Source: Nemertoderma westbladi (taxonomy: Eukaryota > Animalia > Xenacoelomorpha). From it: DNA of 64,000 bases. Each line of letters opens with the position of its first letter. Within the stretch, counting starts at the first letter, position 1. Both the position numbers and the translations under genes were made by a program. The DNA lies in assembly GCA_032718475.1 (NCBI GenBank), contig JAUCBJ010008162.1:1-64000 (forward strand). Reading direction: 5' to 3'. Positions 9,738 to 64,000 of this stretch are shown here, in pieces. The notes under the pieces were generated by a model. The model was not told where the DNA came from, made no database searches, and saw only the letters and a program-made list of their open reading frames with translations.

Positions 9738-9766
9738 TGATTGCCTGAGCCTCGGTAATGCGTTTT

Positions 9767-13812: not shown

Positions 13813-13977
13813 CTCGCTTGGTGATTGGTGGCTGGTGGTTTAGCTGGCTAGGGGAACAGTTCCGATTTAATTACTGAGTTTAGCGCGGGCGGCAGCACTG
13901 GTTTTAATTACTGTGACGGGATCCAGGAAGGATCCCGATTTATCCGTTGTTTAATTCACTCGTCCCCGCCGTGTGTA

Positions 13978-21989: not shown

Positions 21990-23635
21990 GCCCATGATTA
22001 ATGTTTGTGCCCTTGATTGATATCTGTCCCTCGTTTAGTGTTTGTGTCCCTCATTAATGTTTGTGTATCTCATTAATGTTTGTGTCCCTCATTAATGTTT
22101 GTGTATCTCATTAATGTTTGTGTCCCTCATTAATGTTTGTGTCCCTCATTAATGTTTGTGTCCCTCATTAATGTTTGTGTACCTCATTAATGTTTGTGTC
22201 CCTCATTAATGTTTGCGTCCCTCATTAATGTTTGTGTCCCTCATTAATGTTTGTGGACCTCATTAATGTTTGTGTCCCTCATTAATGTTTGCTTCCCTCA
22301 TTAATGTTTGTGTACCTCATTAATGTTAGTGCCCTTGATTGATATCTGTCCCTCGTTTATTGTTTGTGTTCCTCATTAATGTTTGTGTCCCTTATTAATG
22401 TTTGTGTCCCTAATTAATGTTTGTGTACCTCATTAATGTTTGTGTCCCTTATTAATGTTTGTGTCCCTCATTAATGTTTGTGTCCCTCATTAATGTTAGT
22501 GCCCTTGATTGATATCTGTCCATCGTTTATTGTTTGTGTTCCTCATTAATGTTTGTGTCCCTTATTAATGTTTGTGTCCCTAATTAATGTTTGTGTACCT
22601 CATTAATGTTTGTGTCCCTCATTAATGTTTGTGTCCCTCATTAATGTTTGTGTCCCTCATTAATGTTTGTGTATCTCATTAATGTTTGTGTCCCTCATTA
22701 ATGTTTGTGTCCCTCATTAATGTTTGTGTCCCTCATTAATGTTTGTGTACCTCATTAATGTTTGTGTCCCTCATTAATGTTTGCGTCCCTCATTAATGTT
22801 TGTGTCCCTCATTAATGTTTGTGGACCTCATTAATGTTTGTGTCCCTCATTAATGTTTGCTTCCCTCATTAATGTTTGTGTACCTCATTAATGTTAGTGC
22901 CCTTGATTGATATCTGTCCCTCGTTTATTGTTTGTGTTCCTCATTAATGTTTGTGTCCCTTATTAATGTTTGTGTCCCTAATTAATGTTTGTGTACCTCA
23001 TTAATGTTTGTGTCCCTCATTAATGTTAGTGTACATCATTAATGTTTGTGTCCCTCATTAATGTTTGTGTACCTCATTAATGTTTGTGTCCCTCATTAAT
23101 GTTTGTGTCCCTCATTAATGTTAGTGCCCTTGATTGATATCTGTCCCTCGTTTATTGTTTGTGTTCCTCATTAATGTTTGTGTCCCTTATTAATGTTTGT
23201 TTCCCTAATTAATGTTTGTGTACCTCATTAATGTTTGTGTCCCTCATTAATGTTTGTGTCCCTCATTAATGTTTGTGTCCCTCATTAATGTTAGTGCCCT
23301 TGATTAATATCTGTCCCTCGTTTATTGTTTGTGTCCCTCATTAATGTTTGTGTACCTCATTAATGTTTGTGTCCCTCATTAATGTTTGTGTACCCCATTA
23401 ATGTTTGTGTCCCTCATTAATGTTTGTGTACCTCATTAATGTTTGCGTCCCTCATTAATGTTTGTGTCCCTCATTAATGTTCGTGTCCCTCATTAATGTT
23501 TGTGTCCCTCATTAATGTTAGTGCCCTTGATTGATATCTGTCCCTCGTTTATTGTTTGTCCCCCTGATTAATGTTTGTCCCACATTAATGTTTGTGGCGC
23601 TGATAAATATCTGTCCCTCATTTAATGTTTGTGTT
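21990..23635. repeat. 19-bp minisatellite (CATTAATGTTTGTGTCCCT)n with higher-order variants
   Basis: About 1.6-kb tandem array punctuated by the variant GTTAGTGCCCTTGATTGATATCTGTCCCTCGTTTATT. Inverted copies of the unit at about 21600-21670. Confidence 0.95.
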
Positions 23636-24189
23636 CAAGTTGCTATAAGTTACTCTAGGTTGCCGGACGTTTTGGACAATTTGGTCAGCAACTAGCAACG
23701 TAATTTGAGTAACATTAACTTTTAGTCTCCGTTATATGAGGCATCTTTTACAGCAACAAACTTTGCGTTTACATAGAGCAACTTGATCGGCAACCTGACA
23801 TGCTCAATAAGTTGCTGATAGAGTTGCTCACAATGTTGCCACGTACTGTAGAAAAAACAGGTCTTTAATTATTCGTCATGACGTACTGTAAGTGAACTTT
23901 ACTTTAACTTTAACGTAGCTGTATCCCTGTAGCTAGACTTTGTTCTTACTGTAGAGTACCACCCATGGCTATATTTTGTACTTAGAGTTCCGCTTTCATG
24001 AATCTAAATTTTGTTCTTATAGTTCTGCATTTGGCTACGTTTTGTTCAATTTGTATTGATACATGATTCTAACTACAGTCCCGTACTTATTTTAGAAGCA
24101 ATTAATACCAAAATATCAAAAACTTATGGAGCCCTTTAGAATTTTGAATTCAACAATTTCCAACATGTGCGCAAGTGTGTTAGCTATAT

Positions 24190-31900: not shown

Positions 31901-33165
31901 GCCCCCAATGCACCCAATGGGATCCCATTGAGAGACTGCTCTGTGGAAATCAGAATGGGTTCCGTAAAGGTCGTGGGACCATGGAGCCCATTTTGGAACT
32001 TAGAAGGATAATTTAAGAATTATCAAAAAAGAAAGACAGACATCTGGCTGTTATCTTTGTTGACTTCTTCAAGGCCTTTGATTCAGTATCACGTATGTTC
32101 AGCATACTCTCATTATATGGGATTCCTGATGAAATTATTGCAGCAATCAGATCAGTATACGATGGTTCGACAACATTTGTGTCTACTGTTGACGGTGACA
32201 CAGAACTATTTGAAGTGTTATGGGGCGTCCTCCAGGGAGACACACTTGCACCATTCTTGTTCATAATTGTTGTTGACTACGTTCTACGCATGTCCTTAGA
32301 TCATCATAATGGTGATGGGGTGATGATAACTCCACCTACTGGCTCCAGAAGTCGAGGAAATCCTGCCAAGTACCTAACTGATCTAGACTTTGCTGATGAC
32401 TTAGGAGTACTCTCAGAATCACTAGAAGGAGCCCAACGGCTCCTCAGCTCATTAGAACATGCTGCTTCTAGTGTTGGTCAATTAACACCAAAATGACCAA
32501 AATTTTGACATTTAACGTTGAAAGTCTTCAGCAAGTCTCTGACCGGATGAGCATAAGCTCAAAGGATGGTATGCTTGAGCATGTGGACGACTTCTGTTAC
32601 CTCGGATTATGGATACGGAAGTCAGTTGAGGACCTTCGAATACATAAGGGAAAGGCATGGGCAGCCTTTGGAAGTCACAGAGAATTAATCGGAAACTTAA
32701 GGTCCGATTATTTAGAGCAGCAGTATAGTTCCAGTTCTCCTCTATGGGAGTCCATGCTGGGCTCTAACTGCCGAGGACACCAAATCTCTGGATGGCACAT
32801 TCACAAGAATGCTACGCCGGGTTCATTGTGTCAAGTACAATGCACACATTTCCAACCAGACACTATATAACATTGGAGGTGTCTCATTGGTTCTACCAAG
32901 CTTGACACTAGAACAAAGTCGCCTCCGCTTTGCAGGACATTGCTTTCGCCGTGAGGACCAGCCAATGCATAATCTTGTGCTTTGGCGGCCTCATGGAGTG
33001 AATAAGCATGGTGGACATCACATGACTTTCTTTAGACGCATCTTAAAGGACACTGGCCTTGAAGATGCGGATGATCTAGCAAATGTCATGCAATGGCGGC
33101 GCAATTTTGTCGACAAGCCTGCACAGCATTCTTAAAAATGCAGCTGCAATGCAGCATGCCGATCC
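31901..33165 (+). mobile_element. Degenerate 5'-truncated RTE LINE (family 2)
   Basis: NQNGFRKGR, FVDFFKAFDS, GVLQGDTLAP, LDFADD and RLRFAGHC in frameshifted pieces. Closely similar to 49341-50709. Confidence 0.9.
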
Positions 33166-39786: not shown

Positions 39787-42700
39787 AATTGTTATCAGCA
39801 ATGTGTAAATATATATTAATAATTCAACAGAAGTAAACCAATGAGTCCATATAATTGTTATAATAACTTGAGTTTGTATAAGGCCGGCAATGCTGGGCCA
39901 CCCGTCCCTATCCCCACCCTGACACGGATCCAAGCTTCCCCTTGCCGCGTTTTATTGCTGCTGTGTCTATTCCCTATCCAACAGATGTGGAAGAACGGGT
40001 GGAAGACAATCAGCTAACACGCAGGAGAAGCTCAAGACCGGTCTCTCCAAGGGCTGTCCGTAAGGGGGTTATATAGACTGTTGCTGTGCAACTGAGATTA
40101 GTCTGCAATAGGGTTTCGGTTTGCTACAGTATACATACAGAGAATAGCTGTTATTTGTACTATCACGCAAACTAACACACCGAATGCCACAACACGCACA
40201 AATGTCCGTTACAAAACCTACTATTTCCCGAATATTAATATTTTAAATTTCCATGGATACTTATTAAATAAATTCAAATGCATCAACTCTAGGGAAAAAT
40301 GTACGATAAAACTCTAGAAATTTAATAAAAGGGTTGCACAAGTGACACACCAGCATCCCAATATTTTAATTAGCTATTAATTATAACAAGGATCAACATT
40401 CGGTAAATATAGCGGTGGAATAGGGTATTGCTCATTCACACAGATCTGGGCCAACTGTGATATTATTACATCTTTGTTGGTTGTATTATTTAAATTATTT
40501 ACTTGGCTGTGGCAAACACCACAACCAAGTAAATAATTTAAATAGTATCGGTGTTTATACTATTGTTGTATTAATGTCGCAATTAAAGGGTTGATGGTAT
40601 TAAGCTATTAATGAATAATATAAATATAAATTTACGCGATCTAGTGACATAAACTAAGTTTACTCATCCTTGGGAGAGAGCCACTAAGCAGACCACAACC
40701 GTTCCCGTAATGCTTATTATTACAGTGACTTGAACGGATTTATGTGAATGTGATATTGTATTAACAATATCAAGCTAGCTTGGTTCTTGAAGTTTCAAGC
40801 CAACTAATAATTGACATATCTTACTGTACTCTGGCGATTGACAAGAAGCGGGAGTAGTAATTAAGACTCTGCATTCAAGTATTATTAGGCCATCATAATA
40901 CAGCAAGACCAAGGTTTGTTATTGTCATGCGTCATGTTTAATAATGACTTATCATAACTAGTGTAGTTTATTATAATTTTATTTGTAACGCCCTTATCTA
41001 CTCGGGTTACACATGAAGTGGCGGGCCGTCTCCAGAATTTACCCAGAGTTTGGTTTAACCGAAATAAAGGATATGGATTCCGCATTCAATTGTATTATCA
41101 CCATCATCATACAAGTATTAAGGGTTTTGGTTGGTTGCGCGTCATGTTTAATAATGACTTATCGCAACATGTTGTCAAGAATTGAGCTCAGGTTTCATGC
41201 GTCGTGTGTATAACGGCTTATCATGAAACATCCCACTATTCATAATAATGTTCTAGAATGTTCTAGAACTGAGATCAAGTTTCATGCACTGTGTATAAAT
41301 CAGTTTATCATGAAACATCCCGCAGTCCTATTGTTTATGTCATTTTATTCGTAATTCTTCTAGAACTAAGCTCAAGTTTCATGCACTGTGTATAAAACGA
41401 TTTATTATGAAACATCCCATAGTCCTATTGTTATTTGGGACAGAAGCAATGTAAGAATTAATTACGTTAGCCTGTCAAGCTAAATGTATGGCATATTTTT
41501 AAAAACGTATGGGGTCAGTGGTTGACGATGCAACATAACCCGTTCCCACGCTTGAGTGTGATACACAGCACACTCAAACGTTCCAAGGGAGTTAACTAGA
41601 CCAATAAAAATTATGTCAAGTCTGTGGGCTTGACTTCTTGCTTGCCGTAGTTGCCAGATTCTTCGCGTGCCATTTCTAGCAGGCAGGGTTGGCCTATAGG
41701 ACAGTTGAGTTTTTGGGGGACAAAGCTTAGTTTGCCCTTTTCCCTCAGCACTATGGGATCTACTGATCTTACCAGGCCATCCACTATCATTCTACTATCA
41801 TTCTCCTTCCACATATACGTCGAACGAGGTCTCGAGCTCGCAATATAACTGGGCTGCTGAATCCTAGGGGGTCGAAATAAGCACTGAGTATGCCTAGGCG
41901 AATACGTTTGGTTCGGGTATCGCCCTTTCTCAACTTCACTTTAAATACCATAGTGTCACGTTCTGTAGGCCAACAAAGACTTAATGGCTTAGTCTCCGGT
42001 AGGCCGTCCTTATTTAAGTCTAGTTCGGTATCGCTACGCTCGGCGGGGGTATGGCCTTTAAAAACTCACGGGAATTGCTCATGAGTTTTGTTAGGCAAAA
42101 TCCTCCAAGTTTCAGGCAGTTTACTGTCCTTGACTTCTGTTACGATCGGGGCTGGTTTCGGGTTGTTGTCTATGTAAATATCCCATTTGAAATTGTTTAT
42201 GACCAGAGGTGGAAATTCATCCCTATGGTCATCAGCCACACGATGCAGTCGTAAGTCGGATGGTGTATCTAATAGGATAGTCATTGGAGACACAATGTCG
42301 GGTTCACTGTACCTAGTAAGGAAACAGTCTTGGTCTGAGGACAGGGGTGCGTCACTATCACTGTCAGTTTGGTCAGGGGTAGTCAAGACATCCTCTTCTG
42401 TCTCTATGGTCTCATTGCAACGGTGGGTCACTAAGTTGCAAGTGTTGGTGTCTGTATTTGTCAGTCCTTTTTGCTCAAACAGTGTCTTCCGAGAAGGCCC
42501 GGTACAGAACCATCCCACTCTGGTCTGACAGGCATAGGCTGACATTGGCTCTCCAGAATCTCTAAGGCCTCTGGTACATTTTGGCCTATCAACATCTGTA
42601 CACCTGGGTAGTCTGGGGTGAAATGGGGAATATTGTACTTTCTTAGGAGAGCGTCATCATCCCAGTTATAAGCGTTTGCCTGACTTTTGGCAAAATCCCG

Positions 42701-49340: not shown

Positions 49341-50709
49341 CTACTACTACTACTAGGATCGGCATGCTGCATTGCAGCTGCATTTTTAAGAATGCTGTGC
49401 CGGCTTATTGACAAAATTGCACCGCCACAACTCCCTATCACCCATGACATTTGCTAGATCATCCGCATCGTCAAGGCCAGTGTCCTTTAAGATGCGTCTC
49501 AAGAAAGTCATGGGCTGTCCACCATGCTTATTCACTCCATGAGGCTGCCAAAGTACAAGATTATGCACTGGCGAAAGCAATGTCCTGCAAAGCGGAGGCG
49601 ATTTTGTTCTCGTGTTAAGCTTGGGGGAACCAATGAGACACCTCCAATATTATATAGTGTCTGGTTGGAGATGTGTGCATTATACTTGACACAATGAACC
49701 CGGCGTAGCTTTCTTGTGAATGTGCCATCCAGAGATTTGGTGTCCTCAGCAGTTAGAGCCCAGCATGGACTCCCAAAGAGGAGTACTGGAACTACTGCTG
49801 CTCTAAATAATCGGACCTTAAGTTTCCGATTAATTCTCGGTGACTTCCAAATCCTGGAAAGCCTATTCAAGGCTGCCCATGCCTTTCCCTTACGTATTCA
49901 AAGGTCCTCACCTGACTTCCGGATCCATGATCCCAGGTAACAGAAGTCATCCACATGCTCAAGTATACCATCTTTTGAGCTTATGCTCATCCGATCAAAG
50001 ACTTGCTGAGGACTTTCAAAGTTAACTGTCAAAATTTTGGTCTTTCTGGAGGTAATAAAAAGACCAACACTAGAAGCAGCATGTTCTAATGAGCTGAGGA
50101 GTCGTTGGGCTCCCTCTAGTGATTCTGAGAGTACTCCTAAGTCATCAGCAAAATCTAGATCAGTTAGGTACTTGGCAGAATTTCCTCGACTTCTGGAGCC
50201 AGTAGGTGAAGTTATCATCACCCCATCATCATTATGATGATCTAAGGACATGCGTAGAACATAGTCAACAACAATTATGAACAAGAATGGTGCAAGTGTG
50301 TCTCCCTGGAGGACGCCCCATAACACTTCAAATGGTTCTGTGTCACCGTCGACAGTAGACACAAATTTTGTAGAACCATCGTATACTGATCTGATTGCTG
50401 CAATAATTTCATCAGGAATCCCATATAATGAAAGTATGCTGAACATACGTGAGCGAGAGACTGAATCAAAGGCCTTGAAGAAGTCAACAAAGATAACAGC
50501 CAGATGCCTGTTAGGATGCCTTTCTTGGGAACTTGCACCAATTTATTTGTTTTCATTTCTTGTAGGACTCTTGTTGTTCGGTACATGTCTACTATGATGG
50601 GATAGATGAGCTTTAAACACTCAGGTATTTTAAAGACCTCAGGGGGAACACCATCTACTCCACTGGCACGATTGGTCTTAATGCTCTTTGCAGCAGCCTT
50701 CACTTCTGC
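49341..50709 (-). mobile_element. Degenerate RTE family 2 LINE, interrupted at 50709 by element E
   Basis: ASGVDGVPPEV, VDFFKAFDS, LQGD, FADD and LRFAGHC motifs; (TAG)n tail at 49341. Confidence 0.9.
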
Positions 50710-52000
50710 TGTTCGCGGTATTTCAACTTTCCATAACGCGAGTTGAATATTTTTGTATTTTTATTAAAATTGATTATTCCGATATTACTACTGGGTGCGG
50801 GACCATGGGTTTTGGGCACATTCAATAAACTGGGGGCGATTTATGGGCGAACTTTGGGGCAACTTACAGGGTACGGGAATAATTTCATAGTTATAAGGGC
50901 CAGGGGGGATGGAAAATGCAAGCAGTATTCAGGTTAGCCTGAGTACTATTAGGCCCTGGCCAACTTCCTGCTGCCTGTAGGGGTGGATTTGGTAATGTGC
51001 CAGGCCTAAAGGACAAGGACTGCCCTTAGCGGTCCCTGGCCAACGGCAGCTACTACGAGCCTGAAAAGGACTCGGAACGCTGACTGCTTGTGTCAGGGAT
51101 TTGCGACGGGCACCGACGGCCCCTTAGTAGCCAAGCCGTTCTGGTTCTCGATGATCGAACCCCGGGGTTCGTGAGGGGTGGAGCGGACACGCGAACAGGT
51201 GGCCAACTTAAGACTGCCCCCTGACCTAAGCCGTACTGGTTCTCGATGACCGATCCCTTCGGGGTTCGTGAGGGGTGGGACGGACATGCGAAAGGGCTGG
51301 CCACAGGACTGGTTTGACAAGGACTGCCCTTAGCGGTCTCGGGTCAACTGCAGCTACTACGAGCCTGAAAAGGACTCGGAACGCTGACTGCTTGACTGTG
51401 ATTCGCGACGGGAGCCGACGACAGACCCCTTAGCCAAGCCGTTCTGGTTCTCGATGATCGTTCCCTTCGGGGTTCGTGAGGGGTGGAACGGACACGCGAT
51501 GGGGTCGAAAGACAAAGGACTAGACTCGACTAGACTCTACTGGCCTACCGACTGTTCGGAGCAGTTTCTCGGCTGCCGAAGCGACTACGAGCCTGAAAAG
51601 GACTCGGAAAGCCTAGGTGGTTGGGTTTCTGTGATGAACTGACGGACCCCTAGCCAAGCCGTTCTGGTTCTCGATGATCGAACCCTTCGGGGTTCGTGAG
51701 GGGTGGAACGGACACGCGAACGGGTCCACCGACACGACAGACTCCTAGCCAAGCCGTACTGGTTCTCGATGACCGAACCCTTCGGGGTTCGAGAGGGGTG
51801 GTACGGATACGCGACAGAGTCTACCGACTGGACCGACCCTTAGCCAAGCCGTGCTGGTTCTCGATGATCGTTCCCTTCCGGGTTCGTGAGGGGTGGAACG
51901 GACACGCGACAGGGTCGACCGACACCGACACTACGGCACTAAGACTGGGACTGAGGGAAAATCTGGGGAACATTAGGTAGGCTAAAATTCTGAGCGAACA
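50710..52000 (+). repeat. 5' LTR of element E (right end uncertain, about 52000-52240)
   Basis: Starts TGTTCGC; the exact inverse GCGAACA ends at 52000, but no clear PBS follows. Contains internal repeat arrays. Confidence 0.75.
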
Positions 52001-52580
52001 GCGGGTTATTAAATAATATACCGTAGGGATTTATATTATCGTGTATACTTATTGTGAATATTTGGTGTATATTGATTTGGGGAAGCCCAAAATTATTCTT
52101 AATCAGGTTTGAACAGGTTTGAACAGGTTTCAACAGGTTTTCAACTATAGGAAGTTACATTAAAGAGTATATCCAACTAATGCAGCTTTTCTCAACCGCA
52201 AACTTGCATCTTAGAAATATTCCCTCCCCACAATCAATATCCGGTGACTGGCCGGGGCTCGGTGGTCTGTTAAGTCACGTCTCCAGCATCGGCGTTTTTC
52301 CCCCTGGTGTAGGAATAACGGCAACAAAATTAAGAATAATTCACGTGGTTAATTTTGACAGGGTGTCAAAATTAAGAATAATTATCGCGGTCAACTTCAA
52401 CTGGTGGAAGTTGAGAATCCTTCAATACTCTTCAAAAACTCTCTACGTGCTTGCCAGCACCCACTACGAGGAAACTCTGGTATTTGAGTTGAGACAAAGT
52501 CGTGGTTTAATTAATCAGCAAACTCGATCTAACCAACTCGTAGTCGGCAGATCACAATTCGGGAGAGTTGTTAACAGGGA

Positions 52581-52772
52581 ATGGAAGTATCGATCACACC
52601 CATTGATATAATTCAAGTTGAGCCAGGAATCTGGCACGTCGAAGTTGAGGTACAAGGAACGAACGTTGGACGATTCAGGATTACTGTTCGGGTGGTCCAA
52701 GCTGAGTACAATACCTACGAGGAACTGTTTTACGACATCGCGTATCTCGCCATCGACGAGGCGTTACAATGA
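52581..52772 (+). CDS. 63-aa upstream ORF overlapping the gag start (ATGA)
   Basis: Its TGA stop overlaps the gag ATG at 52769-52772; protein-like composition. Confidence 0.35.
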   Translation: MEVSITPIDIIQVEPGIWHVEVEVQGTNVGRFRITVRVVQAEYNTYEELFYDIAYLAIDEALQ

Positions 52773-55700
52773 CCACAAATAACATATCCGATACCGACGA
52801 GATGGATCACCACACAGACTCGGAAGCCGACGAGGTCCCAAACGTCAAGAACATGACCCGTCGGTTAGGGGCTCTTAAAGGCGGAGTAACCCGAGCGTAT
52901 CAACGGATGGAGAAACAACTCAAGGGAGTCAAAACCCCCCTCAACGAGGTACAAACTCAGCTTCAAAGTATCCGAAATATCCTACAGCGGTACGAAAGAA
53001 TGATACAGGCGTACCAAGAGCTCGTTCCTCCCACCGATCAGGAAAACTACCCCAAGCTGGAAGAACACGTTGTACATCTAGATGGGTTCCGCAAACAACA
53101 CCGAAGGACCCTCAGCCTGGTGAGAGGCTATGAGGAACAGTATTACAAGAGGGCTGAAAGAACAGACGCGGAATCAGTACGATCCTCCAGCATCAGGACA
53201 GGAGTACATCACAAGAGAATGGGGTCCACCAGAAATCAGCACTCCAGCGCTAGGAGCGAGATATCCGGCTCAGCGCGCAGTTCTCAAGGGGCGCCGCCAC
53301 TCCGAGACCAACTGAGAGAACGGAAGGCATTAGCCCTCAAAGCTCGGATGGAAGATGAGTATATTCAACTGCAAGCCGAGCAAGATGTACTAGCCGCCGA
53401 AACACAAAGGCGAGAAGCCGAACAAGCGGCCGAACGACAGGCGGAACAACGCGAACAGGAGGCCGAACAACATAGACGAGAGGCCGAACGACAGGCGGAA
53501 CAACGCAAACAGGAGGCCGAACAACGCGAACAGGAGGCCGAACAACATAGACGAGAGGCCGAACGGCAGGCCGAACAACGCAAACGGCAGGCCGAACAAC
53601 ATAGAAGAGAGGACGAACGACAGGCCGAACAACGCAAACAGGAGGCCGAACAACGCGGACGAGAGGCAGAACGAGAGATCGAACAACGTAAATGGGAAGC
53701 GGAAATGCGTAAACAACACGCCGAGGCCCAAGCAATTCTCATCCACAAAAAGAATGCGGATATTGCAAAACTCGCAGAATACGAAGCCGCACTTATCGAA
53801 CGAGATATTCAACTCTACGAGGACTGGGAAAGGGATATAGATCAGGAATATGAACCAATTCCGGTACCGGAGTTAGAAAAGTCATTTACACCAACAGCGG
53901 CGAAACCTCCGAAACCCGAGATCCCGCCTACCAAACAGTCTACGCTATCGGCACAAGCCCCGGTGTTCCATCCCCCACCAGCTACGCTAAAGAATGAGGA
54001 ACCTTATTTCCCATCCAACACCACGACAGCGAGTGTACCCAAGTACGAGCCTGAAAAGGACTCGGAACGGGACGCCACTCCCCGATCAAATAACCCGTTT
54101 ACATCGACACCACAAACTCGTAGCCGCGTCATTATTAAAACTCCACCTATTATTGATCCATCAAGTATGGGAGTGAGTGCCAATAACTATAACCCTCCGA
54201 GTCACTCCAGTTCAGATGACGTCAGCATCATCCGGGCGTTGGAGAACCGCCTTGCCATGCCTAAGATGGAGATTCGCACCTTCGAAGGAGATCCCGTCGA
54301 TTACCTCAGATTCAAGAAACGGTTCTTCGCGCAGATTGGATCAACGGACATAGCCGACGCACAGAAATTGGTATATTTATCGCAATACCTGGGTGACAAA
54401 CCACGCAGAATTGTTGCATGTTTTGAAGGAGGTTCTCATGAGGCATACTATGATGCATGGAAAACTCTGGATAAAAGATACGGAAATACCGGAACTATAA
54501 TTAATAAAACTCTAGAGAGACTGATACAGGACGCGGGATCACTAGGAGACCCACAGAACATACAGGAATTCTCCGACTCTATGAAGGATGCCTACTATAC
54601 TCTGAAACCCTTGAATAAGGAGGACCAGGTGAACAACATTCTAAACCTCCGACAGATCGCCCGGAAGTTCCCCGGATGGCTACAAAGTAAGTGGGCTTAT
54701 AAATGTGTAGACCTCCGGCGCAGACATCCAGATCGAGATCCTAGCTTCCTTGAGATGTCGGCATTCCTGGACGATATCTCCGAAGCCATGAATGACTCGA
54801 TGTTTTCCAAACAAAGTCTCGCAAAGTTGGACGGAATAGAGAGCAACTCCAGGAGTAAGATAACCCCTCCGAAACCAAGATTCCGACCCCCACCGGTGAG
54901 TACGATGGCCATCACCATGGCTGAGGATTCCGACGACGAAGACTACGAGGAACCGACATCCGCCGAGGAATGGGCATGTTATCTCGCGAATTGGGCACCC
55001 GAAAGGGAAGGCATCACAAATTCCCTGCTCTGTCTCTTCTGTGGGGAGAAACATAAAGTGGAATTCTGCAGAAAGTTTCAGTTCGCCGACCTCGTCCCAC
55101 GCTTCGAGGCGATAATGAAACACCGAGGATGCTTCCGGTGTCTTGGAACAGGTCACTACGTTCGGGATTGCGACCAAAGGTCGTGCTGTGCTGTCTGTAA
55201 CGACCAACGCCATCACACGCTCCTCCACATCCCCGCGAACTTCGATTTTACTACCCTCCCCTTTCGGATCGAAGCCAAGCGAAGAGGAGAAACAAACCAC
55301 GTCTTCAAAGGAACCCGGACAACCCAACGGAGAGAAACCAACCCGTTTAAAATCTCCACCAATACACCACAAGTAACAAATATTTCGGCCACGATTAATC
55401 TTATAAATCGCCGCTACATGGTTTTCGCAAAGGTAATCCCAGTAAGGATCCAAGGAGTCGGCAAATCTTTGACGACACTCGCGTTCCTCGATAACGGGTC
55501 CGACGGAACCATCATCGACCGGGATTTTCTCGAGCAACTCGGACTAGAATATGAACCTTGTAAACGGCCCATACAAACCATCACCGATAACAGAGAGGTA
55601 GAGTCCGGGGAGGTGCAACTCCAGATGGAAGGAGTGATGAAGGGCTACGAAACGGCTAAGTTAACCATAAAGAACGCCTTGGTACACACAGACCTCCGGG

Positions 55701-58700
55701 TGCGGTTCCGACAATCAGCCGAGTATGCCCCCCTCATACAATTGGACCGGGACGATGTAGACCTGAGGTGCCCGCAGTTGGACGTAAACCGTATCACCCT
55801 ACTGATCGGACTCGATACACCGGAACTACACATCCCAACCGGAGATATCGCCCGATCTATAAACCAGGATGACGGATTTTATGCTGAACGAACAATAATG
55901 GGATGGACACTCTGCGGCATTAAGGAGGAAACTACGGACACCTATACCTACCTTCCCAAATGTCAGATTAAAGAGAATGTAATCTCCGTGGGTTATTGCT
56001 CAGCTTCGGATCTTGACGAGGATTTGTTTCTGGAATCCGAGAAAACTCAACGAGAGATGACGAAATATTTTAATTTGGAGACCCAGGAGTTCGCGGAAAA
56101 GGACGAAAACCCATCCGAAGAGGACCAATATTGCATGGACGTTCTCGACCAGGCCACGTTTAAAGACGGACATTGGTGTTCACCTATGTTATGGAAGGAT
56201 CCAAACAAACCAATGGCAAACAACGCCAGCATGGCACTTAAACGACTTAAAGGGATTCTACGCCGGCTGAATGACCAACCTGAAATAAAGGAGAAATATA
56301 ATACCGTAATCCAAGGATATCTCGATGATGGATTAGCAGAAATGGTACCACGGAATGAACTGCAAGGTGGTAAAAGAACATATTATCTCCCAACCCACTA
56401 TGTAGTAGAAGCCCGCAAAGGGGGGAAAATCCGAGTGGTAAATGATGCTGCCGCTATGTACCAGGGCGAATCCCTAAACAGTCAACTTTACACGGGACCC
56501 AACATATATAGCACACTCATCGGCGTATTGATCAGGTTCAGGGAAAACCGGGTAGCATTTACCTGTGACATCAAGGCCATGTTTCATCAAGTTCGTACGT
56601 TACCAAAAGACTCGGACTGTCTACGTATCCTATGGACGGATAAAACGCTTACTCAACAGGAGATTAGCCAACTCACGATACGGGACGTAGACGTAATGCG
56701 TATGGTCGTCAGGATCTTCGGCGCTAAGGACTCGCCGGTAGCATGCAGTGACATGCTAAAGAGGACGGCAACTATGTGCGAAAACGAGTTCCCTCCAACC
56801 GTCATAGAAACCATTCGACGATGTTTCTACGTGGACGACGGATGCGCCGGCGCGGATAACGTGGATGAGGCATATCGGCTAGCAATGGGGATGGTGGAAT
56901 GTCTAAAGAAAGGAGGGTTTCCGCTCGTAAAGTTCAGATCCCATGACAAAACACTTATGGAAAAGTTTCCGGAGGACATCCGGCTGGAAGATAACAAAAT
57001 GTATTCGGAGGATGTAGAACATCGTGTACTTGGGATTGAATGGGACATAGAATCAGACGAATTCATCTTCAAGTATAAACCCCTAACCAAGCCTATGACA
57101 AAAAGGGGATGTCTGTCGATAAAAAGTGCAATCTTCGACCCACTGAATTTCATATCTCCAGTAACCTTGGCCGGAATGAACCTGATTAAGGAAATGTGGA
57201 TAGAAGGACTGGGATGGGACGAAGAGCTCCCCCCATACCTTAGCGTCAAATGGAGAAAATGGACGGAGCAGCTCGAACACCTACATCTTATGCGAATACC
57301 TAGACCGTTCTTCCTCGATAAACTGCCCACCGATATCTTCCAGCTCCACACCTTTTCGGATGCTTCAAATACCGGAATCGGCGTAGTAACCTTCTTACGG
57401 AGACTAAGTAGCGATGGAAACGGCGATACAAGTTTCTTATTCTCCAAAGCAAAGACAGTATCCGGGGAATTCGTAGCAACGATTCCGAGACTCGAGCTAC
57501 AAGCTGCAGTTTGGGCAGTAAGACAGAATCGCATGGCCATGCGGAACCTACGGATCCCCATAGAATCTCAACACTTCTGGGTAGATTCGAGTATAGTTCT
57601 TTATTATCTCCACTCTCCATCACGGCGTCACACCACGTTTGTTGCAAACCGAGCCACGGAGATTAAACAATGTACCGGCCGAGAACAGTGGCATCACGTG
57701 AACGGGAAGGAAAATCCAGCGGACTTATCAAGCCGAGGCGCCACCCCAAAACAACTCGGTAAGAGTAAACTCTGGCTTACAGGCCCGGAATTCCTACGGC
57801 AGCCACAATTAACATGGAGTACCCGATTCGACCCCGAGCTCGATAGCGGAAAATACTCCGAGGACGACAAAGAAATCCGTAAAATCCATCGAAGCAACGC
57901 GGTGGAAATTTATAGTTGTCTGACTGAGCCTGCAAAGGACTCGGGCAGGCACTATAACGTCGCGACGATCACTCAACTAGCGACGTCTTTACATCGGTTG
58001 ATCGAGCGAACTTCATCCATGAGACGGCTCGTCCACCACGTTATAACCCTTCGCAACTTCCTACGGTGGAAAAACAACAAACCGATAGTTCAACGGAATA
58101 TACAAGAACTCATCATTGCGGAGAAGTGTATTGTTAGATATGTCCAGAAAGAAAGTTTCCCCGATGAATGGGAACAACTTAGTGCGGGCAAAACGTTGAA
58201 ACCGGACAGCCCAGTCTACCAACTGAGACCAATGATGGGAGAGGACGGACTGATCCGACTGAATACCCGGATGGCAAACGCCCCGGTCGACTATGAGATT
58301 AAATACCCGGCGCTTCTGCCCGGAACGTCGACACTAGCTAAGCTATTAATTCTACAATGTCACGAGGACAACCACCACGCAGGACAGAATTGGATTATAG
58401 CCAATATAAGACAAAGATATTGGATCACCCACATCCAGCCACTGATCCGGAAAGTGTTGAAACGTTGCTTCACCTGCAGACGTTACCTAGCGCCACCAAT
58501 CACCCAAAAGATGGCCGACTTACCAGCCACCCATCTACAAGCGGACTCCCCACCATTCTACGTCACCGGAGTGGACTGTTTCGGACCGTTCACGGTTATT
58601 GAACGACGATCCAACATCAAATGCTGGGGAGCCATCTTCACCTGCCTAAGATCTAGGGCAATTTACCTAGATATCGTGGTAAATCTGACACAACACGCAT

Positions 58701-59530
58701 TCATCAACGCTCTGCGTCGGTTCGTGGCGAACAACGGGACATGTCGCCACATGTATTCCGATAATGGTACAAACTTTGTGGGAGGAGAAAGAGAACTTAG
58801 AGAGGCGATCGAGGGATGGTTTACCGATAACACCGCATCCCAAGTCTGGAAGGAACACCAGATACAGTGGCACTTCCAGACCCCCCTAGCACCCCATACA
58901 AGCGGGGTATGGGAGAAACTGATCGACCTAGTGAAACGGTCCATGCGCGTCGCTCTAGGCGATACCCGGGTAACCCATGACACCCTCCGCACAACATTCT
59001 GCGAGATCACGGCTACCCTGAACAACCGACCCATTGTTCCTATCCGCGACGACCCCACAGACCTGGAACCCCTCACTCCTAACCACTTACTGGGGAGACC
59101 CAAAACCCACCTCCTCCCGGAAACCATGTTCCCGGATCCCAACGAGATCGCAAAACATACAAACTGGAAAAAGGCCCAAGCGTTGGCAGCGCATTGGTGG
59201 AGGATTTGGGCCCAGGAATATCTCATAACCCTCCGGACCAGGAGGAAATGGAACAACACCCACCGGAACGTCGCAGTTGGCGACATGGTACTAGTTAGAG
59301 AAGATCTCAAAGACCGCGTTCACTGGCCTGTGGCGCGGGTCGTGACCATACACCCAAGCAAAGACGGACTTGCGAGGACTGTGACGATACGAACGAAAGC
59401 GGGCCACTACCAACGCCCCATCCAGAAGCTGTGCCTTCTTGAAGGCAATGACAGTGGTGATTCTACAAGAGGTGATAAGTTCCCTACGGATCCTACTGTG
59501 GACATTGGTGACAATGACAAATGCGTTTAA
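52769..59530 (+). CDS. gag-pol: Bel-Pao Gag-Pol polyprotein, 2253 aa, single ORF
   Basis: Coiled coil, DUF1759-like core (FEGDPVDYLRF), three knuckles (CLFCGEKHKVEFC, CFRCLGTGHYVRDC, CAVCNDQRHHTLLH), protease LDNGS, RT YVDD, Pao-type RNase H (FSDAS, IPRLEL, WVDS, NPADLSSRG), integrase (HHAG...CFTC, GVDCFGP, SDNGTNF, GVWE) and a DUF5641-like tail. Confidence 0.97.
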   Translation: MTTNNISDTDEMDHHTDSEADEVPNVKNMTRRLGALKGGVTRAYQRMEKQLKGVKTPLNEVQTQLQSIRNILQRYERMIQAYQELVPPTDQENYPKLEEHVVHLDGFRKQHRRTLSLVRGYEEQYYKRAERTDAESVRSSSIRTGVHHKRMGSTRNQHSSARSEISGSARSSQGAPPLRDQLRERKALALKARMEDEYIQLQAEQDVLAAETQRREAEQAAERQAEQREQEAEQHRREAERQAEQRKQEAEQREQEAEQHRREAERQAEQRKRQAEQHRREDERQAEQRKQEAEQRGREAEREIEQRKWEAEMRKQHAEAQAILIHKKNADIAKLAEYEAALIERDIQLYEDWERDIDQEYEPIPVPELEKSFTPTAAKPPKPEIPPTKQSTLSAQAPVFHPPPATLKNEEPYFPSNTTTASVPKYEPEKDSERDATPRSNNPFTSTPQTRSRVIIKTPPIIDPSSMGVSANNYNPPSHSSSDDVSIIRALENRLAMPKMEIRTFEGDPVDYLRFKKRFFAQIGSTDIADAQKLVYLSQYLGDKPRRIVACFEGGSHEAYYDAWKTLDKRYGNTGTIINKTLERLIQDAGSLGDPQNIQEFSDSMKDAYYTLKPLNKEDQVNNILNLRQIARKFPGWLQSKWAYKCVDLRRRHPDRDPSFLEMSAFLDDISEAMNDSMFSKQSLAKLDGIESNSRSKITPPKPRFRPPPVSTMAITMAEDSDDEDYEEPTSAEEWACYLANWAPEREGITNSLLCLFCGEKHKVEFCRKFQFADLVPRFEAIMKHRGCFRCLGTGHYVRDCDQRSCCAVCNDQRHHTLLHIPANFDFTTLPFRIEAKRRGETNHVFKGTRTTQRRETNPFKISTNTPQVTNISATINLINRRYMVFAKVIPVRIQGVGKSLTTLAFLDNGSDGTIIDRDFLEQLGLEYEPCKRPIQTITDNREVESGEVQLQMEGVMKGYETAKLTIKNALVHTDLRVRFRQSAEYAPLIQLDRDDVDLRCPQLDVNRITLLIGLDTPELHIPTGDIARSINQDDGFYAERTIMGWTLCGIKEETTDTYTYLPKCQIKENVISVGYCSASDLDEDLFLESEKTQREMTKYFNLETQEFAEKDENPSEEDQYCMDVLDQATFKDGHWCSPMLWKDPNKPMANNASMALKRLKGILRRLNDQPEIKEKYNTVIQGYLDDGLAEMVPRNELQGGKRTYYLPTHYVVEARKGGKIRVVNDAAAMYQGESLNSQLYTGPNIYSTLIGVLIRFRENRVAFTCDIKAMFHQVRTLPKDSDCLRILWTDKTLTQQEISQLTIRDVDVMRMVVRIFGAKDSPVACSDMLKRTATMCENEFPPTVIETIRRCFYVDDGCAGADNVDEAYRLAMGMVECLKKGGFPLVKFRSHDKTLMEKFPEDIRLEDNKMYSEDVEHRVLGIEWDIESDEFIFKYKPLTKPMTKRGCLSIKSAIFDPLNFISPVTLAGMNLIKEMWIEGLGWDEELPPYLSVKWRKWTEQLEHLHLMRIPRPFFLDKLPTDIFQLHTFSDASNTGIGVVTFLRRLSSDGNGDTSFLFSKAKTVSGEFVATIPRLELQAAVWAVRQNRMAMRNLRIPIESQHFWVDSSIVLYYLHSPSRRHTTFVANRATEIKQCTGREQWHHVNGKENPADLSSRGATPKQLGKSKLWLTGPEFLRQPQLTWSTRFDPELDSGKYSEDDKEIRKIHRSNAVEIYSCLTEPAKDSGRHYNVATITQLATSLHRLIERTSSMRRLVHHVITLRNFLRWKNNKPIVQRNIQELIIAEKCIVRYVQKESFPDEWEQLSAGKTLKPDSPVYQLRPMMGEDGLIRLNTRMANAPVDYEIKYPALLPGTSTLAKLLILQCHEDNHHAGQNWIIANIRQRYWITHIQPLIRKVLKRCFTCRRYLAPPITQKMADLPATHLQADSPPFYVTGVDCFGPFTVIERRSNIKCWGAIFTCLRSRAIYLDIVVNLTQHAFINALRRFVANNGTCRHMYSDNGTNFVGGERELREAIEGWFTDNTASQVWKEHQIQWHFQTPLAPHTSGVWEKLIDLVKRSMRVALGDTRVTHDTLRTTFCEITATLNNRPIVPIRDDPTDLEPLTPNHLLGRPKTHLLPETMFPDPNEIAKHTNWKKAQALAAHWWRIWAQEYLITLRTRRKWNNTHRNVAVGDMVLVREDLKDRVHWPVARVVTIHPSKDGLARTVTIRTKAGHYQRPIQKLCLLEGNDSGDSTRGDKFPTDPTVDIGDNDKCV

Positions 59531-59799: not shown

Positions 59800-60230
59800 T
59801 ATGTTGTCCGTTGCGTGCGCAGTTCGGGGCGTAGGCGGTGTAACGAGTCCAGCTGTAGATCCCGGATTGCCGCGCAACACCCCCTCTATCCCGTTATTCT
59901 GGTGGGTCCATGGTGCATCCACGTGACTTCGACGATAGAGGGTTTTATGTTTCTCAGTCGCGTTATTCTGGTGGGACCGTTGCGTGGATTTTGGGGCGTA
60001 GGCGGTGTAACGAGTCCAGCTGTAGATCCCAGAATGTTGCGTAACCCCATCCCACATGACTTCGTCGACTGAGCTTTATGTTGTTGGGAGTGTTATTCTG
60101 GTGGGTCCCTGGTGCACCCACGTGACTTCACTCCTAGCGTCTTCATTGTCCGTTACGTGCGCAGTTTGGGGCGTAGGCGGTGTAACGAGTCCAGCTGTAG
60201 ATCCCAGATTGCCGCGTAACACCCCTTCCA
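59800..60230 (+). repeat. Three ~170-bp repeats in the pol-ORF2 spacer
   Basis: Identical core GGGGCGTAGGCGGTGTAACGAGTCCAGCTGTAGATCCC at 59826, 59993 and 60168. Confidence 0.9.
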
Positions 60231-60771
60231 CGACAAAGATTAACCAAAGAAAATGATTCAATATAGTTGGAAATGATGAAAAGGATCAGACAACTCTGCT
60301 ATAAACCCGAATGATGACGCGTATACTGATGAAAATGTAATGATGCGCACCCTGGTGCTGCGCTTATAACAATGATGATAGCCGGGGGGCTATAAACCCA
60401 ATGATGATGTGGAAATAAATAAATGTGAAATAAATGGTGGAACTAAATGTTGAAATATATGTGGAAATAAATGAGATGAGATGAAATAATAATGAAATGA
60501 AAAAAGACAAAAAAAAGGTATAAAAGAGGTCAAAGAAAAGAATTGGAAAAAAAGGACAAAAAAGTCATAAAAAACTGGTTGGATATTATGTATAGCTATA
60601 GTAACTGTAAATGCTGAATGTATTAGCAATAAGATGATAGATGCCTATATAGCAATGTTATTGAATAAACTGAATTAAATAAAAAACTGAATTATTCTGC
60701 TATCGCTATAGTTTCAGACTTTCTGGACTTATAATTAACTGAACTAATTTGTAACGGATATAATCGTAAAT

Positions 60772-63372
60772 ATGGACCCAAATCGCCAAATTATCGGCGA
60801 ATTACGTAACACGGTAGATCTACTGGAATATTCGCAACCCGGATCCCCTGACTTTGATACAAATTGGAACATTCTGCTAAATGAGAACGTACGAGAAATT
60901 AAATTCACCGGGCGAGAGGGACCGGATTCTAAGAATCTACGAGCCCTCCAGTTAGCCGATGCTACTACGAGCCTGAAAAGGACTCGGAACGCAAAGGCAA
61001 CCGGAGGGGACGATTCGTCGTTTTGGGAAACGTTCCGGCAGAGCGTCTACAGATCCCGATGTTTGATCTACGACAACGAGGGAAACGCGACGCCCACCTC
61101 GAAGGCGATTACGTTGGCGAGATGTCAGAGCTTCGTCGACGACAAGAGTACGTACCTCGCCCACTGGGGAAACTTGTCGGAGTGTACGGCGACGCTTCGA
61201 GAGGAACGCGTATCGATTATCCAAAACCGCGACGACTACCAGGAAAAGTACGGGGCGAAAGAATACGGTCGATCCTTAGTCGTCGTCCTCGGAACCCTGG
61301 ACGGTTTGGTACTGGTGTGCCGAATATTCCCGACACCCAGACATGAAGTGCAGGCAGCCGGAGCGATCTGGTTGCTGCCTACGGATATCCAAAAGATCCT
61401 CTTCGACTTCGACGTCATTAAAATCGGGTCGGATATCAAGGCGGACGTCCGGAACGATTACGCGAACGCTCCCGCAGGAAGAAACCGACGAAACGACCTC
61501 AACGCACTTAGCCATTGCATCGATACTCAAACGCTGCTAGCCTGGTTACGATTCGCCGAGTTCATGCGAGGATTCCAAGAAGTGAGACCGACGAAATCCG
61601 GAATCGGCTACCTCGCTGTGCTCAACGGCGGTATCGACTTCAAACCCCAGAAATTCCGGGACTATAATAAAATATACGGCGGATACCCGGGATTAGAGAT
61701 AAAGAGCGAGCGAGAGGGTCGATGGAAGGACGTCGATCGGAAGTGGACGATACACCAAAGGTGGGAGAATCCCGATCGACGGAGCTATATCTACGTCGTT
61801 ATGGAATGCTACACCGTCGCTAAGTTTATCTGCAAGACTCTAGATAACCTCATCAAGGCGGTCCCCCTTTCCTTCGTCGACTACGACTGGAACGAGGTTA
61901 TAAACCACGCGTTTAAAGCGGTCGAGAACATTACACCGGGAGAATCGAAAACGCCCGCCGTTATCGAATCCTGGGACGAGAGCGGACCTTACGATATCCC
62001 TACGATTACCGAACTTCTCGGTGCGGAGGAGCCTCTGATCTCCTCGGAAGGGGAAGAGATATGGCTAAACGAGGGTGTTCTACTCTCCACCCCGAAGCGA
62101 CAACTCGAACCGGAGGCCGCGTACGGACCGGCCGCCAAACGGGTTGCCTCGGCCGAACCGATAAAGAGAGCAGGCGTCTACACCCCACGCGGCTCCGGTA
62201 GCCCCGCGAGAGAGGTAGCCACTACGGCTGCATTGAGCGACTTCGGCGACATATGCCAACGGTTATCCCCGTATCCTTTCCCGGGTGGCGAAGATTGGTC
62301 GTCGGAGATCCCGAGTACCAGCCACCTACGGACCCGCTCAGCGATACTGGTCGAGGAGGGACCCAGCGATGCGCCGACACCCGATGATCTCCTCGGTATC
62401 CCTCCGTCGAAAACCCCGGCACCTCTTCGCCGACCAGCGGTAGCTACTACACCCGCCGTTCCTCAGGACCCTATGCGACTAACCCGTTGGTACGCCGAGC
62501 AAACTGAATGGATCCACCGCCAGAAACGGTCGTCCGAGTTGAGACCATCGGGACATAACGAGGGTTATCGGAGCGAAAACATACTACGCAAGAGCCCAGC
62601 ATTCCGCGGGCTACCGACCACCGAGAATATTCCGAAGAGCGACCGACGACTCGAATACTACGCCGGCGTTCCGATTCCGATATTCCCCGGTCGGGAGATG
62701 CAGTTGGAGGTATGCGACGACTGCGGTTCGGAGCAGTGCCCACGCAGCAGAAGGAATCGGGTTACCGATTCTTGCCTCCAGCTCCTTGGGATACTCTATT
62801 GCCCATACTGCGCGATATCGGGCCACGACGTTTCGGTCTGTCCGATCCTTTATAACCTCTGCACCACGTGCGGTTTCCGTGGACATTCCGCTAGCCCCCG
62901 CTGCTATATTAAATGTCCAACCAAAGACGTTACCGCTATGGGCAATATGGTCATGTTTGAGACATACGCAAACAGCCATTTAAAGACCAAGTTTCGGAGA
63001 AACGCTCGGAATATTGCGCAGGAGATGGCGTGCGGATATTTCTCCTTCCCGGAACGCCTCCACACGTCGGCCTCGCTACCCTTCCATTACGTGGATCTGC
63101 TACTGAGCGCCGGATTATTCGGTCCATTCGAAGTTATTAGACGATTATATTCGTATAAAGAGGAGTTCGGTGACGGAGAATGGTTCCTAGAGGCACGCAA
63201 CTCCGAGTTGGAAAGACGAACCGACATGATCCCGATGCCTTCGAAAGGAAGAGCCGCCAGGAGACAAGCCGAAGCGTTACTCACGATGGATGTTGACGCT
63301 CCTCTACCAGCCATAGCGATCGATGAGAGTCGACGGGCGAAGAGACGGAAGGCGTACCAGAAAAAGAAATAA
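60772..63372 (+). CDS. 866-aa ORF2: WRN/EXD/Mut-7-like DEDD 3'-5' exonuclease domain, disordered linker, CCHC zinc-knuckle cluster
   Basis: ExoI IYDNEG (D101/E103). LPTDIQKILFDFDVIKIGSDIKAD (ExoII D225) fits the WRN-type LP..L..LL.D..I.KVG..I..D pattern, followed by CIDTQ. ExoIII IYVVME (Y341/E345). Knuckles CDDC...CPYCAISGHDVSVCP...CTTCGFRGH...C. Confidence 0.8.
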   Translation: MDPNRQIIGELRNTVDLLEYSQPGSPDFDTNWNILLNENVREIKFTGREGPDSKNLRALQLADATTSLKRTRNAKATGGDDSSFWETFRQSVYRSRCLIYDNEGNATPTSKAITLARCQSFVDDKSTYLAHWGNLSECTATLREERVSIIQNRDDYQEKYGAKEYGRSLVVVLGTLDGLVLVCRIFPTPRHEVQAAGAIWLLPTDIQKILFDFDVIKIGSDIKADVRNDYANAPAGRNRRNDLNALSHCIDTQTLLAWLRFAEFMRGFQEVRPTKSGIGYLAVLNGGIDFKPQKFRDYNKIYGGYPGLEIKSEREGRWKDVDRKWTIHQRWENPDRRSYIYVVMECYTVAKFICKTLDNLIKAVPLSFVDYDWNEVINHAFKAVENITPGESKTPAVIESWDESGPYDIPTITELLGAEEPLISSEGEEIWLNEGVLLSTPKRQLEPEAAYGPAAKRVASAEPIKRAGVYTPRGSGSPAREVATTAALSDFGDICQRLSPYPFPGGEDWSSEIPSTSHLRTRSAILVEEGPSDAPTPDDLLGIPPSKTPAPLRRPAVATTPAVPQDPMRLTRWYAEQTEWIHRQKRSSELRPSGHNEGYRSENILRKSPAFRGLPTTENIPKSDRRLEYYAGVPIPIFPGREMQLEVCDDCGSEQCPRSRRNRVTDSCLQLLGILYCPYCAISGHDVSVCPILYNLCTTCGFRGHSASPRCYIKCPTKDVTAMGNMVMFETYANSHLKTKFRRNARNIAQEMACGYFSFPERLHTSASLPFHYVDLLLSAGLFGPFEVIRRLYSYKEEFGDGEWFLEARNSELERRTDMIPMPSKGRAARRQAEALLTMDVDAPLPAIAIDESRRAKRRKAYQKKK

Positions 63373-63528: not shown

Positions 63529-63536
63529 GGGGGGGA
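63529..63536 (+). other. Polypurine tract
   Basis: GGGGGGGA, one base before the 3' LTR TGT. Confidence 0.8.
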
Positions 63537-63537
63537 C

Positions 63538-64000
63538 TGTTCGCGGTATTTCAACTTTCCATAACGCGAGTTGAATATTTTTGTATTTTATTAAAATTGA
63601 TTATTCCGATATTACTACTGGGTGCGGGACCATGGGTTTTGGGCACATTCAATAAACTGGGGGCGATTTATGGGCGAACTTTGGGGCAACTTACAGGGTA
63701 CGGGAATAATTTCATAGTTATAAGGGCCAGGGGGGATGGAAAATGCAAGCAGTATTCAGGTTAGCCTGAGTACTATTAGGCCCTGGCCAACTTCCTGCTG
63801 CCTGTAGGGGTGGATTTGGTAATGTGCCAGGCCTAAAGGACAAGGACTGCCCTTAGCGGTCCCTGGCCAACGGCAGCTACTACGAGCCTGAAAAGGACTC
63901 GGAACGCTGACTGCTTGTGTCAGGGATTTGCGACGGGCACCGACGGCCCCTTAGTAGCCAAGCCGTTCTGGGTCTCGATGATCGAACCCCGGGGTTCGTG
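63538..64000 (+). repeat. 3' LTR of element E (partial)
   Basis: Matches 50710-51173. Confidence 0.97.

Follow-up and report, generated by a model that had tools for sequence, protein, structure and literature searches.

What could a row of kink-turn (k-turn) hairpins be doing in the long terminal repeat (LTR) of a retrotransposon? The question arises from a contig of Nemertoderma westbladi (JAUCBJ010008162.1), of which positions 1-64,000 of the forward strand were analysed; this 64-kb stretch is referred to as the window, and all coordinates are based on it. An earlier note on this DNA had read six stem-loops as k-turns of the kind bound by L7Ae/Snu13-family proteins, placed them in an LTR and proposed that they may assemble a snoRNP-like or protective RNP. 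Here, these hairpins are termed A units and a second, interspersed hairpin is termed B.

The host of the array is an intact BEL/Pao LTR retrotransposon. Between its LTRs, a single intact ORF (52706..59530, + strand; 2274 codons, first ATG at 52769) encodes the domains on which the BEL/Pao assignment is based, namely Gag (DUF1759), an aspartyl protease, Peptidase_A17, the Pao RT/RNase H region, integrase and DUF5641. The best relatives of this gag-pol product are 38-41% identical over residues 1100-1700, and the named ones come from corals, molluscs, fish and other animals. The 5' LTR (50710..52535, + strand) starts with certainty at the TG at 50710. It probably ends near 52535: the summed contig depth falls from 43-88k (bin 52076-52519) to 20-28k (bin 52520-52963) in runs X1 and X3, and a CA at 52534-5, just before a primer binding site (PBS)-like 12-mer (52539..52550, + strand), is consistent with an LTR end. 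We take this 12-mer to be complementary to the 3' end of tRNA-Ser. An LTR end at 52000, suggested by a 7-bp inverted repeat, was rejected, as the depth continues there without a break. A polypurine tract (63529..63537, + strand) precedes the 3' LTR (63538..64000, + strand), which is cut by the window end; a B hairpin (63881-63904) and the greater part of A unit 1 are still included. The LTR placement of the array is confirmed by the terminal repeat and the BEL/Pao domains. The insertion is young, since only 2 differences in 464 nt separate the two LTRs. All 30 bins of the element were covered by a total of 28,298 contigs in run X1 and 10,070 in run X3 (organism A; summed depth does not equal copy number), and 1137 sequence variants were found across the element over four runs. 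This coverage and these variants indicate a multi-copy family.

Other repeats surround the element. It sits within a very abundant LINE-type RT fragment (49356-50709, - strand), another copy of which is found at 32036-33165. A second, broken BEL/Pao element (7881-13839, - strand), with a frameshifted gag and a truncated pol, carries neither A nor B hairpins, and no A or B unit was detected in any BEL fragment of the window outside the array-bearing element (7911-10444, 14537-15028 and 41814-42248). A long 19-bp minisatellite occupies 21978-23636.

All six A units proposed previously were recovered on the + strand, within 3-5 nt of the starts given for them. They occupy 51118..51204 (unit 1), 51216..51297 (unit 2), 51424..51506 (unit 3), 51644..51727 (unit 4), 51739..51822 (unit 5) and 51834..51917 (unit 6). 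From its base upward, each unit is predicted to have an outer helix (P0), then a small loop followed by 2 bp, and a 4x4 loop below helix P1, which has 8 bp. A 2-nt bulge separates P1 from the C helix of 4 bp. Above this come the GAU bulge, the tandem GA/GA pairs and a 3b:3n pair of non-Watson-Crick type; the upper helix has 7 bp and ends in a tetraloop. The GAU bulge, the tandem GA/GA pairs and C:G at both -1b:-1n and 4b:4n are present in all six units, as are the features of the standard k-turn test (a 3-nt bulge, tandem G.A and A.G pairs, and flanking C and NC helices), so that, at the level of sequence, the k-turn consensus is confirmed. The finer claims were right for most units only. The U.U pair at 3b:3n is found in four of the six and is replaced by C.U in unit 2 and by C.A in unit 5. 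Likewise, the C(UUCG)G loop occurs in four, with two loop bases missing in unit 1 and one base different in this copy of unit 6. The C helix exists, but next to the bulge it has only 4 bp, including two U.G wobbles, before the 2-nt bulge interrupts it.

How specific is this pattern? A strict k-turn-hairpin descriptor matched six times on the + strand, always in the array, and nowhere else on either strand of the 64 kb. Among 300 dinucleotide shuffles of the array, four yielded one match and none yielded two; because the six units are duplicates of one ancestor, chance is fairly judged by the single-unit figure (~1.3%). Searching with a covariance model built from the six units recovered all of them plus the cut-off seventh piece in the 3' LTR (63976-64000, E 0.51), along with five other weak matches in the window (E 0.52-4.7). 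Covariation across copies, on which the earlier note made its reading depend, was found in the outer helices of the six window units. In a MAFFT alignment, 5 of 27 pairs changed on both sides (four in P0, one in P1), a level reached in 2 of 500 shuffles, while slid controls gave at most 1. The compensatory outer pair reported for unit 5 proved real in this pair-change analysis, and that unit carries compensatory pairs in both P0 and P1. These statistics rest on only six related sequences and are supportive, not proof. None of the 15 k-turn consensus columns varies, against 13 of 51 others (one-sided p 0.023, with columns chosen post hoc). All six units fold better on the + strand than on the - strand. 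The best formed is unit 4 (fold z -2.9), with 5 G.U among its 29 pairs; z-scores of single units range from -3.0 to +1.3, and those of the array halves on the + strand are -2.7 and -1.3.

Population data were available for unit 6, covered by 1503, 339, 32 and 1 contigs in the four runs. No variant at ≥3% depth falls in its k-turn core, and the four at ≥3% depth elsewhere affect the upper helix (two), the loop (one) and the linker (one), in a table in which mapping is biased to the reference and under-counts diverged units. Contig joints in X1, X3 and X4 skip one to several A units (window 51110-51854), and one X5 contig (organism B) joins the upstream flank of unit 1 to unit 6, giving a one-unit LTR; these joints suggest either real copy-number variation or assembly collapse. 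The hexamer ACCGAC occurs seven times in the linkers of the array (51112-51929) and 24 times in the whole window, and may be a binding site in single-stranded form. Collections of viral contigs and metagenomes yielded no independent lineage that carries the array. Unit flanks were present in none of the listed stable-hairpin matches to the k-turn core pattern (viral contigs) or the tandem pattern (metagenomes); these scans gave at least 257 core matches in at least 240 loci, and the collections are mostly prokaryotic, hence this is no evidence of absence.

The kinked form is not the only fold open to the A units. A 2-nt slip along the G4 tract produces an alternative with a 5-nt AUGAU bulge that is predicted to be 4.0-6.0 kcal/mol lower in all six units, by a nearest-neighbour model that has no k-turn term and cannot score sheared GA pairs. 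Covariation cannot separate the two registers, because the C-helix pairs are invariant across units. The preference of the model for the slipped register implies that the kinked form probably needs Mg2+ or a protein, and we are fairly confident that the kinked form, reached in either way, would be the functional one. According to the published folding rules, C:G at -1b:-1n and at 4b:4n favours ion-induced folding, U.U at 3b:3n is intermediate and a C at 3b folds well (PMC8191799, PMC5689011, PMC4382518). Units 2 and 5 have C at 3b, which by these rules favours protein-free folding. By these rules the A k-turns are predisposed to fold with Mg2+ only, which leaves an architectural role as open as protein loading. 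As for the protein, selection experiments with Snu13 are reported to have yielded U.U at 3b:3n, and Snu13 itself to require little beyond the GA pairs and U.U (PMC1874613).

Binding by this family would not make the units snoRNAs. Box C is given as RUGAUGA and box D as CUGA (PMC5499572), and a G:C pair at 4b:4n is described as conserved in box C/D (PMC5689011). In all six A units the corresponding sequences are GAUGA(U/C)C and G(U/A)GA, with C:G at 4b:4n, so boxes C and D are both absent and the snoRNP-like assembly proposed earlier is not supported. Rfam returned nothing on the array at E values up to 10, with two weak matches elsewhere in the window. SECIS elements were considered and rejected: SBP2 is stated to need a purine-pyrimidine pair at position 4 (PMC1874613), where the A units have C-G, and both ORFs of the element end in TAA without an in-frame UGA. 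Hammerhead, hairpin and twister ribozymes, judged by eye against their consensus sequences, gave no fit. By sequence, then, the A units are compatible with Snu13/L7Ae yet are neither snoRNAs nor SECIS elements. The idea that they are captured or hosted box C/D snoRNAs or SECIS elements, prompted by the resemblance of GAUGA..UGA to the cores of both, is on these grounds very improbable.

The B hairpin, absent from the earlier note, is a 24-nt core that recurs identically six times in the window: three times in the 5' LTR (51054..51077, 51358..51381 and 51586..51609), once in the 3' LTR, once in gag (54044..54067) and once in a downstream ORF, ORF2 (60966..60989), all on the + strand. In the LTR, the modules follow the order B A A B A B A A A. 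The predicted fold begins with a sarcin/ricin-type 5x4 loop, followed by 4 bp and a bulged A; the 3 bp above these carry the GAAA loop. A longer stem underlies every copy, and those of the third LTR copy, the gag copy and the ORF2 copy are unrelated in sequence yet paired. A sarcin/ricin (loop E) descriptor (A.A, a bulged base, U.A, a sheared A.G and a 5x4 loop) matched all six copies, with two weak, unrelated matches elsewhere in the 64 kb. As bulged base the gag copy has G, whereas the other copies have C; a bulged C occurs in loop E of PSTVd. G is described as the standard base of the motif (PMC6633198).

The gag copy is translated as YEPEKDSE and the ORF2 copy is read in a different frame. 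Two B variants are among the 40 listed of the 1137 variants: a C/G swap at 60965, the bulged base of the ORF2-copy loop (30, 72 and 100% depth in X1, X3 and X4, respectively), and a U-A to U.G change at 54057 in the gag copy. Both are compatible with the predicted fold. That one hairpin has been preserved in two coding frames is our strongest indication of selection on the RNA of this element, and copies so placed look like multi-site protein handles. No match to the B 24-mer was found in viral contigs, which likewise is no evidence of absence.

Whether the array is carried by the RNA, and at which end, can be judged from putative transcription signals. A candidate poly(A) signal, ATTAAA, followed by a U/GU-rich tract, lies at 52008..52013 (+ strand), and further candidates are AATAAA at 50824 and ATTAAA at 50763 and 52159 (+ strand). 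Because the candidates at 52008 and 52159 are downstream of the array, the array would be at the 3' end of the RNA, as U3 or R, a placement complicated by the AATAAA that precedes the array at 50824. If a TATA-like box at 50892..50896 (+ strand) is used, transcription would start at about 50920, the array would lie within R and it would also be present at the 5' end. Two further stable hairpins, one with two internal loops, directly follow the TATA-like box (50920-51010).

ORF2 (60772..63372, + strand; 866 aa), which the earlier note lacked, is a candidate partner of these RNA structures. A splice-acceptor-like TTTCAG lies upstream of it (60712..60717, + strand). The layout of the protein is a degenerate 3'-5' exonuclease-like domain, a low-complexity linker, CCHC knuckles and a basic C-terminus. 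Pfam assigned no family at E 0.001, and zf-CCHC_4 gave E 0.063, while language-model features (Atlas) of residues 80-400 matched DNA_pol_A_exo1 clusters (score 0.92, with a modest 163 of 256 shared). A search of residues 1-409 against 1.84 billion representatives retrieved two relatives (E 2.6e-6 and 9.3e-4). One, an unnamed 648-aa protein (P0123) on a 9.4-kb contig, shares the exonuclease-like and knuckle layout: it matches DNA_pol_A_exo1 weakly (E 0.2), has a zinc knuckle at E 0.046 and resembles ORF2 in its C-terminal block. The first acidic motif of both relatives is unmatched in ORF2, in a part of the alignment that is gappy. The unmatched motif suggests that ORF2 is an RNA-binding pseudo-nuclease. 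Word-based protein searches returned no ORF2 relative and, for the P0123 query, only P0123; sequence searches of the PDB gave one weak match each; and Pol and P0123 queries against mostly prokaryotic collections gave 0 confirmed loci. Structure predictions for ORF2 had pLDDT values of 37 and 34.

Between pol and ORF2 (59804-60228), a hairpin with a 36-nt core (C) occurs three times (59828, 59995 and 60170) and alternates with a stem containing internal loops (D), likewise present three times (59894, 59963 and 60093), one C being nested in a D. The region has a fold z of -4.3, C folds 16-17 kcal/mol better on the + strand, and no Rfam match was found in it. Run X4 depth peaks on this region and on the LTR, hinting at internally deleted derivatives that retain both.

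We propose that the A units and B hairpins constitute a cis-acting RNP platform that stabilises or exports the unspliced RNA, in the manner of Rex/RxRE or of Cer1 CERV, and we give this reading a probability of about 45%. The array would be transcribed and, from the signals described above, lie near the 3' end of the RNA, in U3 or R, or at both ends if the TATA-like box at 50892 is used. The A units would rest in the slipped, unkinked register until Mg2+ or a host protein of the L7Ae family, most likely Snu13/15.5K, captures the k-turn. The B hairpins would add a further handle with several sites, for which ORF2, with its exonuclease-like domain and zinc knuckles, is a plausible partner; this protein would be made from a spliced mRNA, as is CERV in Cer1. 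RNA coated in this way would resist decay and exit the nucleus unspliced.

Four other readings were weighed against this one. The one that fares best, though we think it unlikely, needs no protein: Mg2+-folded k-turn elbows would bring the GAAA loops of B to dock into the base loops of A. Either the coding regions or two genomes would in this way be tied to the LTR, to compact or dimerise the RNA or to bring its 5' and 3' parts into contact. The k-turn pairs that favour ion folding fit this architecture, and so do the loops of B, which are GAAA in the three LTR copies and in those of gag and ORF2. So does a loop at the base of the A units that the earlier note had passed over, (G/C)C(C/U)AAG opposite (C/U)A(C/U)G(C/G), which in all six is near the 11-nt GAAA receptor; its sequence provides the C2-G10 pair and the AA platform of that receptor in every unit, and the changes in unit 2 shift it toward the receptor sequence. 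However, the U3.A8 core pair is lacking, with C at position 3 in five of the six units, and substitutions at 8A-3U mostly abolish binding in the data available from bioRxiv 2022.12.15.518780. The G6.U7 wobble is G-C in five of six, a change that costs 4.33 kcal/mol in PMC2275092, although effects at this step range from none to >2 kcal/mol in bioRxiv 2022.12.15.518780. Moreover, position 1:11 of unit 2 is a C.C mismatch, the element holds no exact 11-nt receptor, and the relaxed pattern also matches five places in pol. A broader version, to which we give similarly little credence, combines the two ideas: genome ends built from three-dimensional motifs of ribosome and ribozyme type (k-turns, sarcin/ricin, GAAA and receptor-like loops), with identical docking hairpins in the genes, might form a self-assembling tertiary scaffold, a natural tectoRNA, read by a host L7Ae-family protein and by the element's own pseudo-nuclease.

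It is less probable still that no k-turn forms in vivo and that the slipped register, with its AUGAU bulge, serves as a set of repeated sites for an element protein such as Gag, in packaging or dimerisation. This register is the predicted minimum-energy fold of all six units and has three invariant Watson-Crick pairs, but that prediction comes from a model blind to sheared GA pairs. Every letter of the bulge agrees with the k-turn consensus when read in register with the upper helix, and the change at 3n in unit 5 breaks a pair of the slipped register while being tolerated in a k-turn.

A switch between translation and packaging appears improbable as well. Here, the array would lie in a 1.1-kb R, and its 5' copy, once occupied by a protein of the L7Ae family, would prevent scanning and direct the RNA into packaging. 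The TATA-like box at 50892 and the ATTAAA at 52008 do bracket the array, and archaeal L7Ae is reported to repress translation through a k-turn in a 5' leader (PMC6298567). Nevertheless, AT-rich start candidates also follow the array, which would place it in U3, at the 3' end only.

The array could also consist of enhancer repeats acting at the DNA level, or have arisen in U3 by neutral tandem duplication, the hairpins being incidental. LTRs commonly contain tandem repeats, and the contig joints may reflect a unit number that varies among copies, or assembly collapse, but the compensatory changes, G.U pairs, strand bias, UUCG and GAAA loops, and B hairpins maintained on unrelated stems in two coding frames make such readings very improbable.

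The combined array of A and B is a real and probably functional RNA element of a new design, seen here in one element family. Neither Rfam nor the literature covered (titles and the starts of abstracts, with subscription journals largely outside the coverage) contained a k-turn array in an LTR. To our knowledge, no cis element has been described for the protection or export of BEL/Pao unspliced RNA. None of the motifs is new in itself, and retroelements are already known to carry structured elements for stability or export (PMC12501189). With six k-turns in an array, either a mobile element would have borrowed the entry protein of the host snoRNP and spliceosome, or k-turns would serve as building blocks outside ribosomes, riboswitches and snoRNAs. 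Because the A units are short and repeated, with natural variation at the position on which k-turn folding depends, their binding and folding are testable in days with standard reagents. The B hairpin is also a candidate target of the accessory exonuclease-like ORFs found in retroelements, a group whose role was left open in PMC5408684.

How does this arrangement compare with known systems? With the standard k-turns of the L7Ae family (Kt-7, U4 and box C/D), as described in PMC8191799, PMC5689011 and PMC4382518, the A units share a 3-nt bulge of purine-purine-U, tandem sheared G.A/A.G pairs, C:G at -1 and a non-Watson-Crick 3b:3n pair. They differ in standing six in tandem in an LTR, in having a weak, wobble-rich C helix with a competing register and, compared with box C/D, in having C:G rather than G:C at 4b:4n. 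Their core (a GAU bulge, U.U and then C-G) is presumably the same as that of the B/C motif of U3 snoRNA. That motif is described as a high-affinity Snu13 site, on which Snu13 is followed by Rrp9/U3-55K, and yeast Rrp9 needs neighbouring U3 helices in vitro (PMC5499572). In contrast to U3 B/C, the A units are closed by a UUCG hairpin and have no multi-way junction, and no U3 match was found in Rfam.

Among export systems, the likeness to Rev/RRE and Rex/RxRE (PMC3390767 and general knowledge) is one of layout only. In Cer1 of Caenorhabditis elegans, CERV, made from a spliced mRNA, is reported to export the unspliced genomic RNA (PMC10309623). Cer1 is a Ty3/gypsy element and the accessible text of that paper mentions neither a stem-loop nor an exonuclease, whereas here ORF2 is exonuclease-like and the RNA carries repeated three-dimensional motifs. 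The Juno and Vesta LTR elements of bdelloids encode, after pol, a DEDDy exonuclease, ORF3, whose role was left open (PMC5408684); it resembles ORF2 as an accessory ORF of 3'-5' exonuclease type, in some cases with a Cys-His-Cys motif. ORF3 keeps its catalytic residues, whereas the first acidic motif is not aligned in ORF2, in a gappy alignment, and the host here is BEL/Pao. Finally, the ENE triple helix of Arabidopsis Evade, according to PMC12501189, stabilises the retrotransposon RNA; as is proposed for the array, it is a structured element near the 3' end of the RNA of an LTR retrotransposon, with stability as its role. The ENE clamps the poly(A) tail through a U-rich loop; the A and B units, without such a loop, would instead rely on k-turns, sarcin/ricin-like loops and tetraloops.
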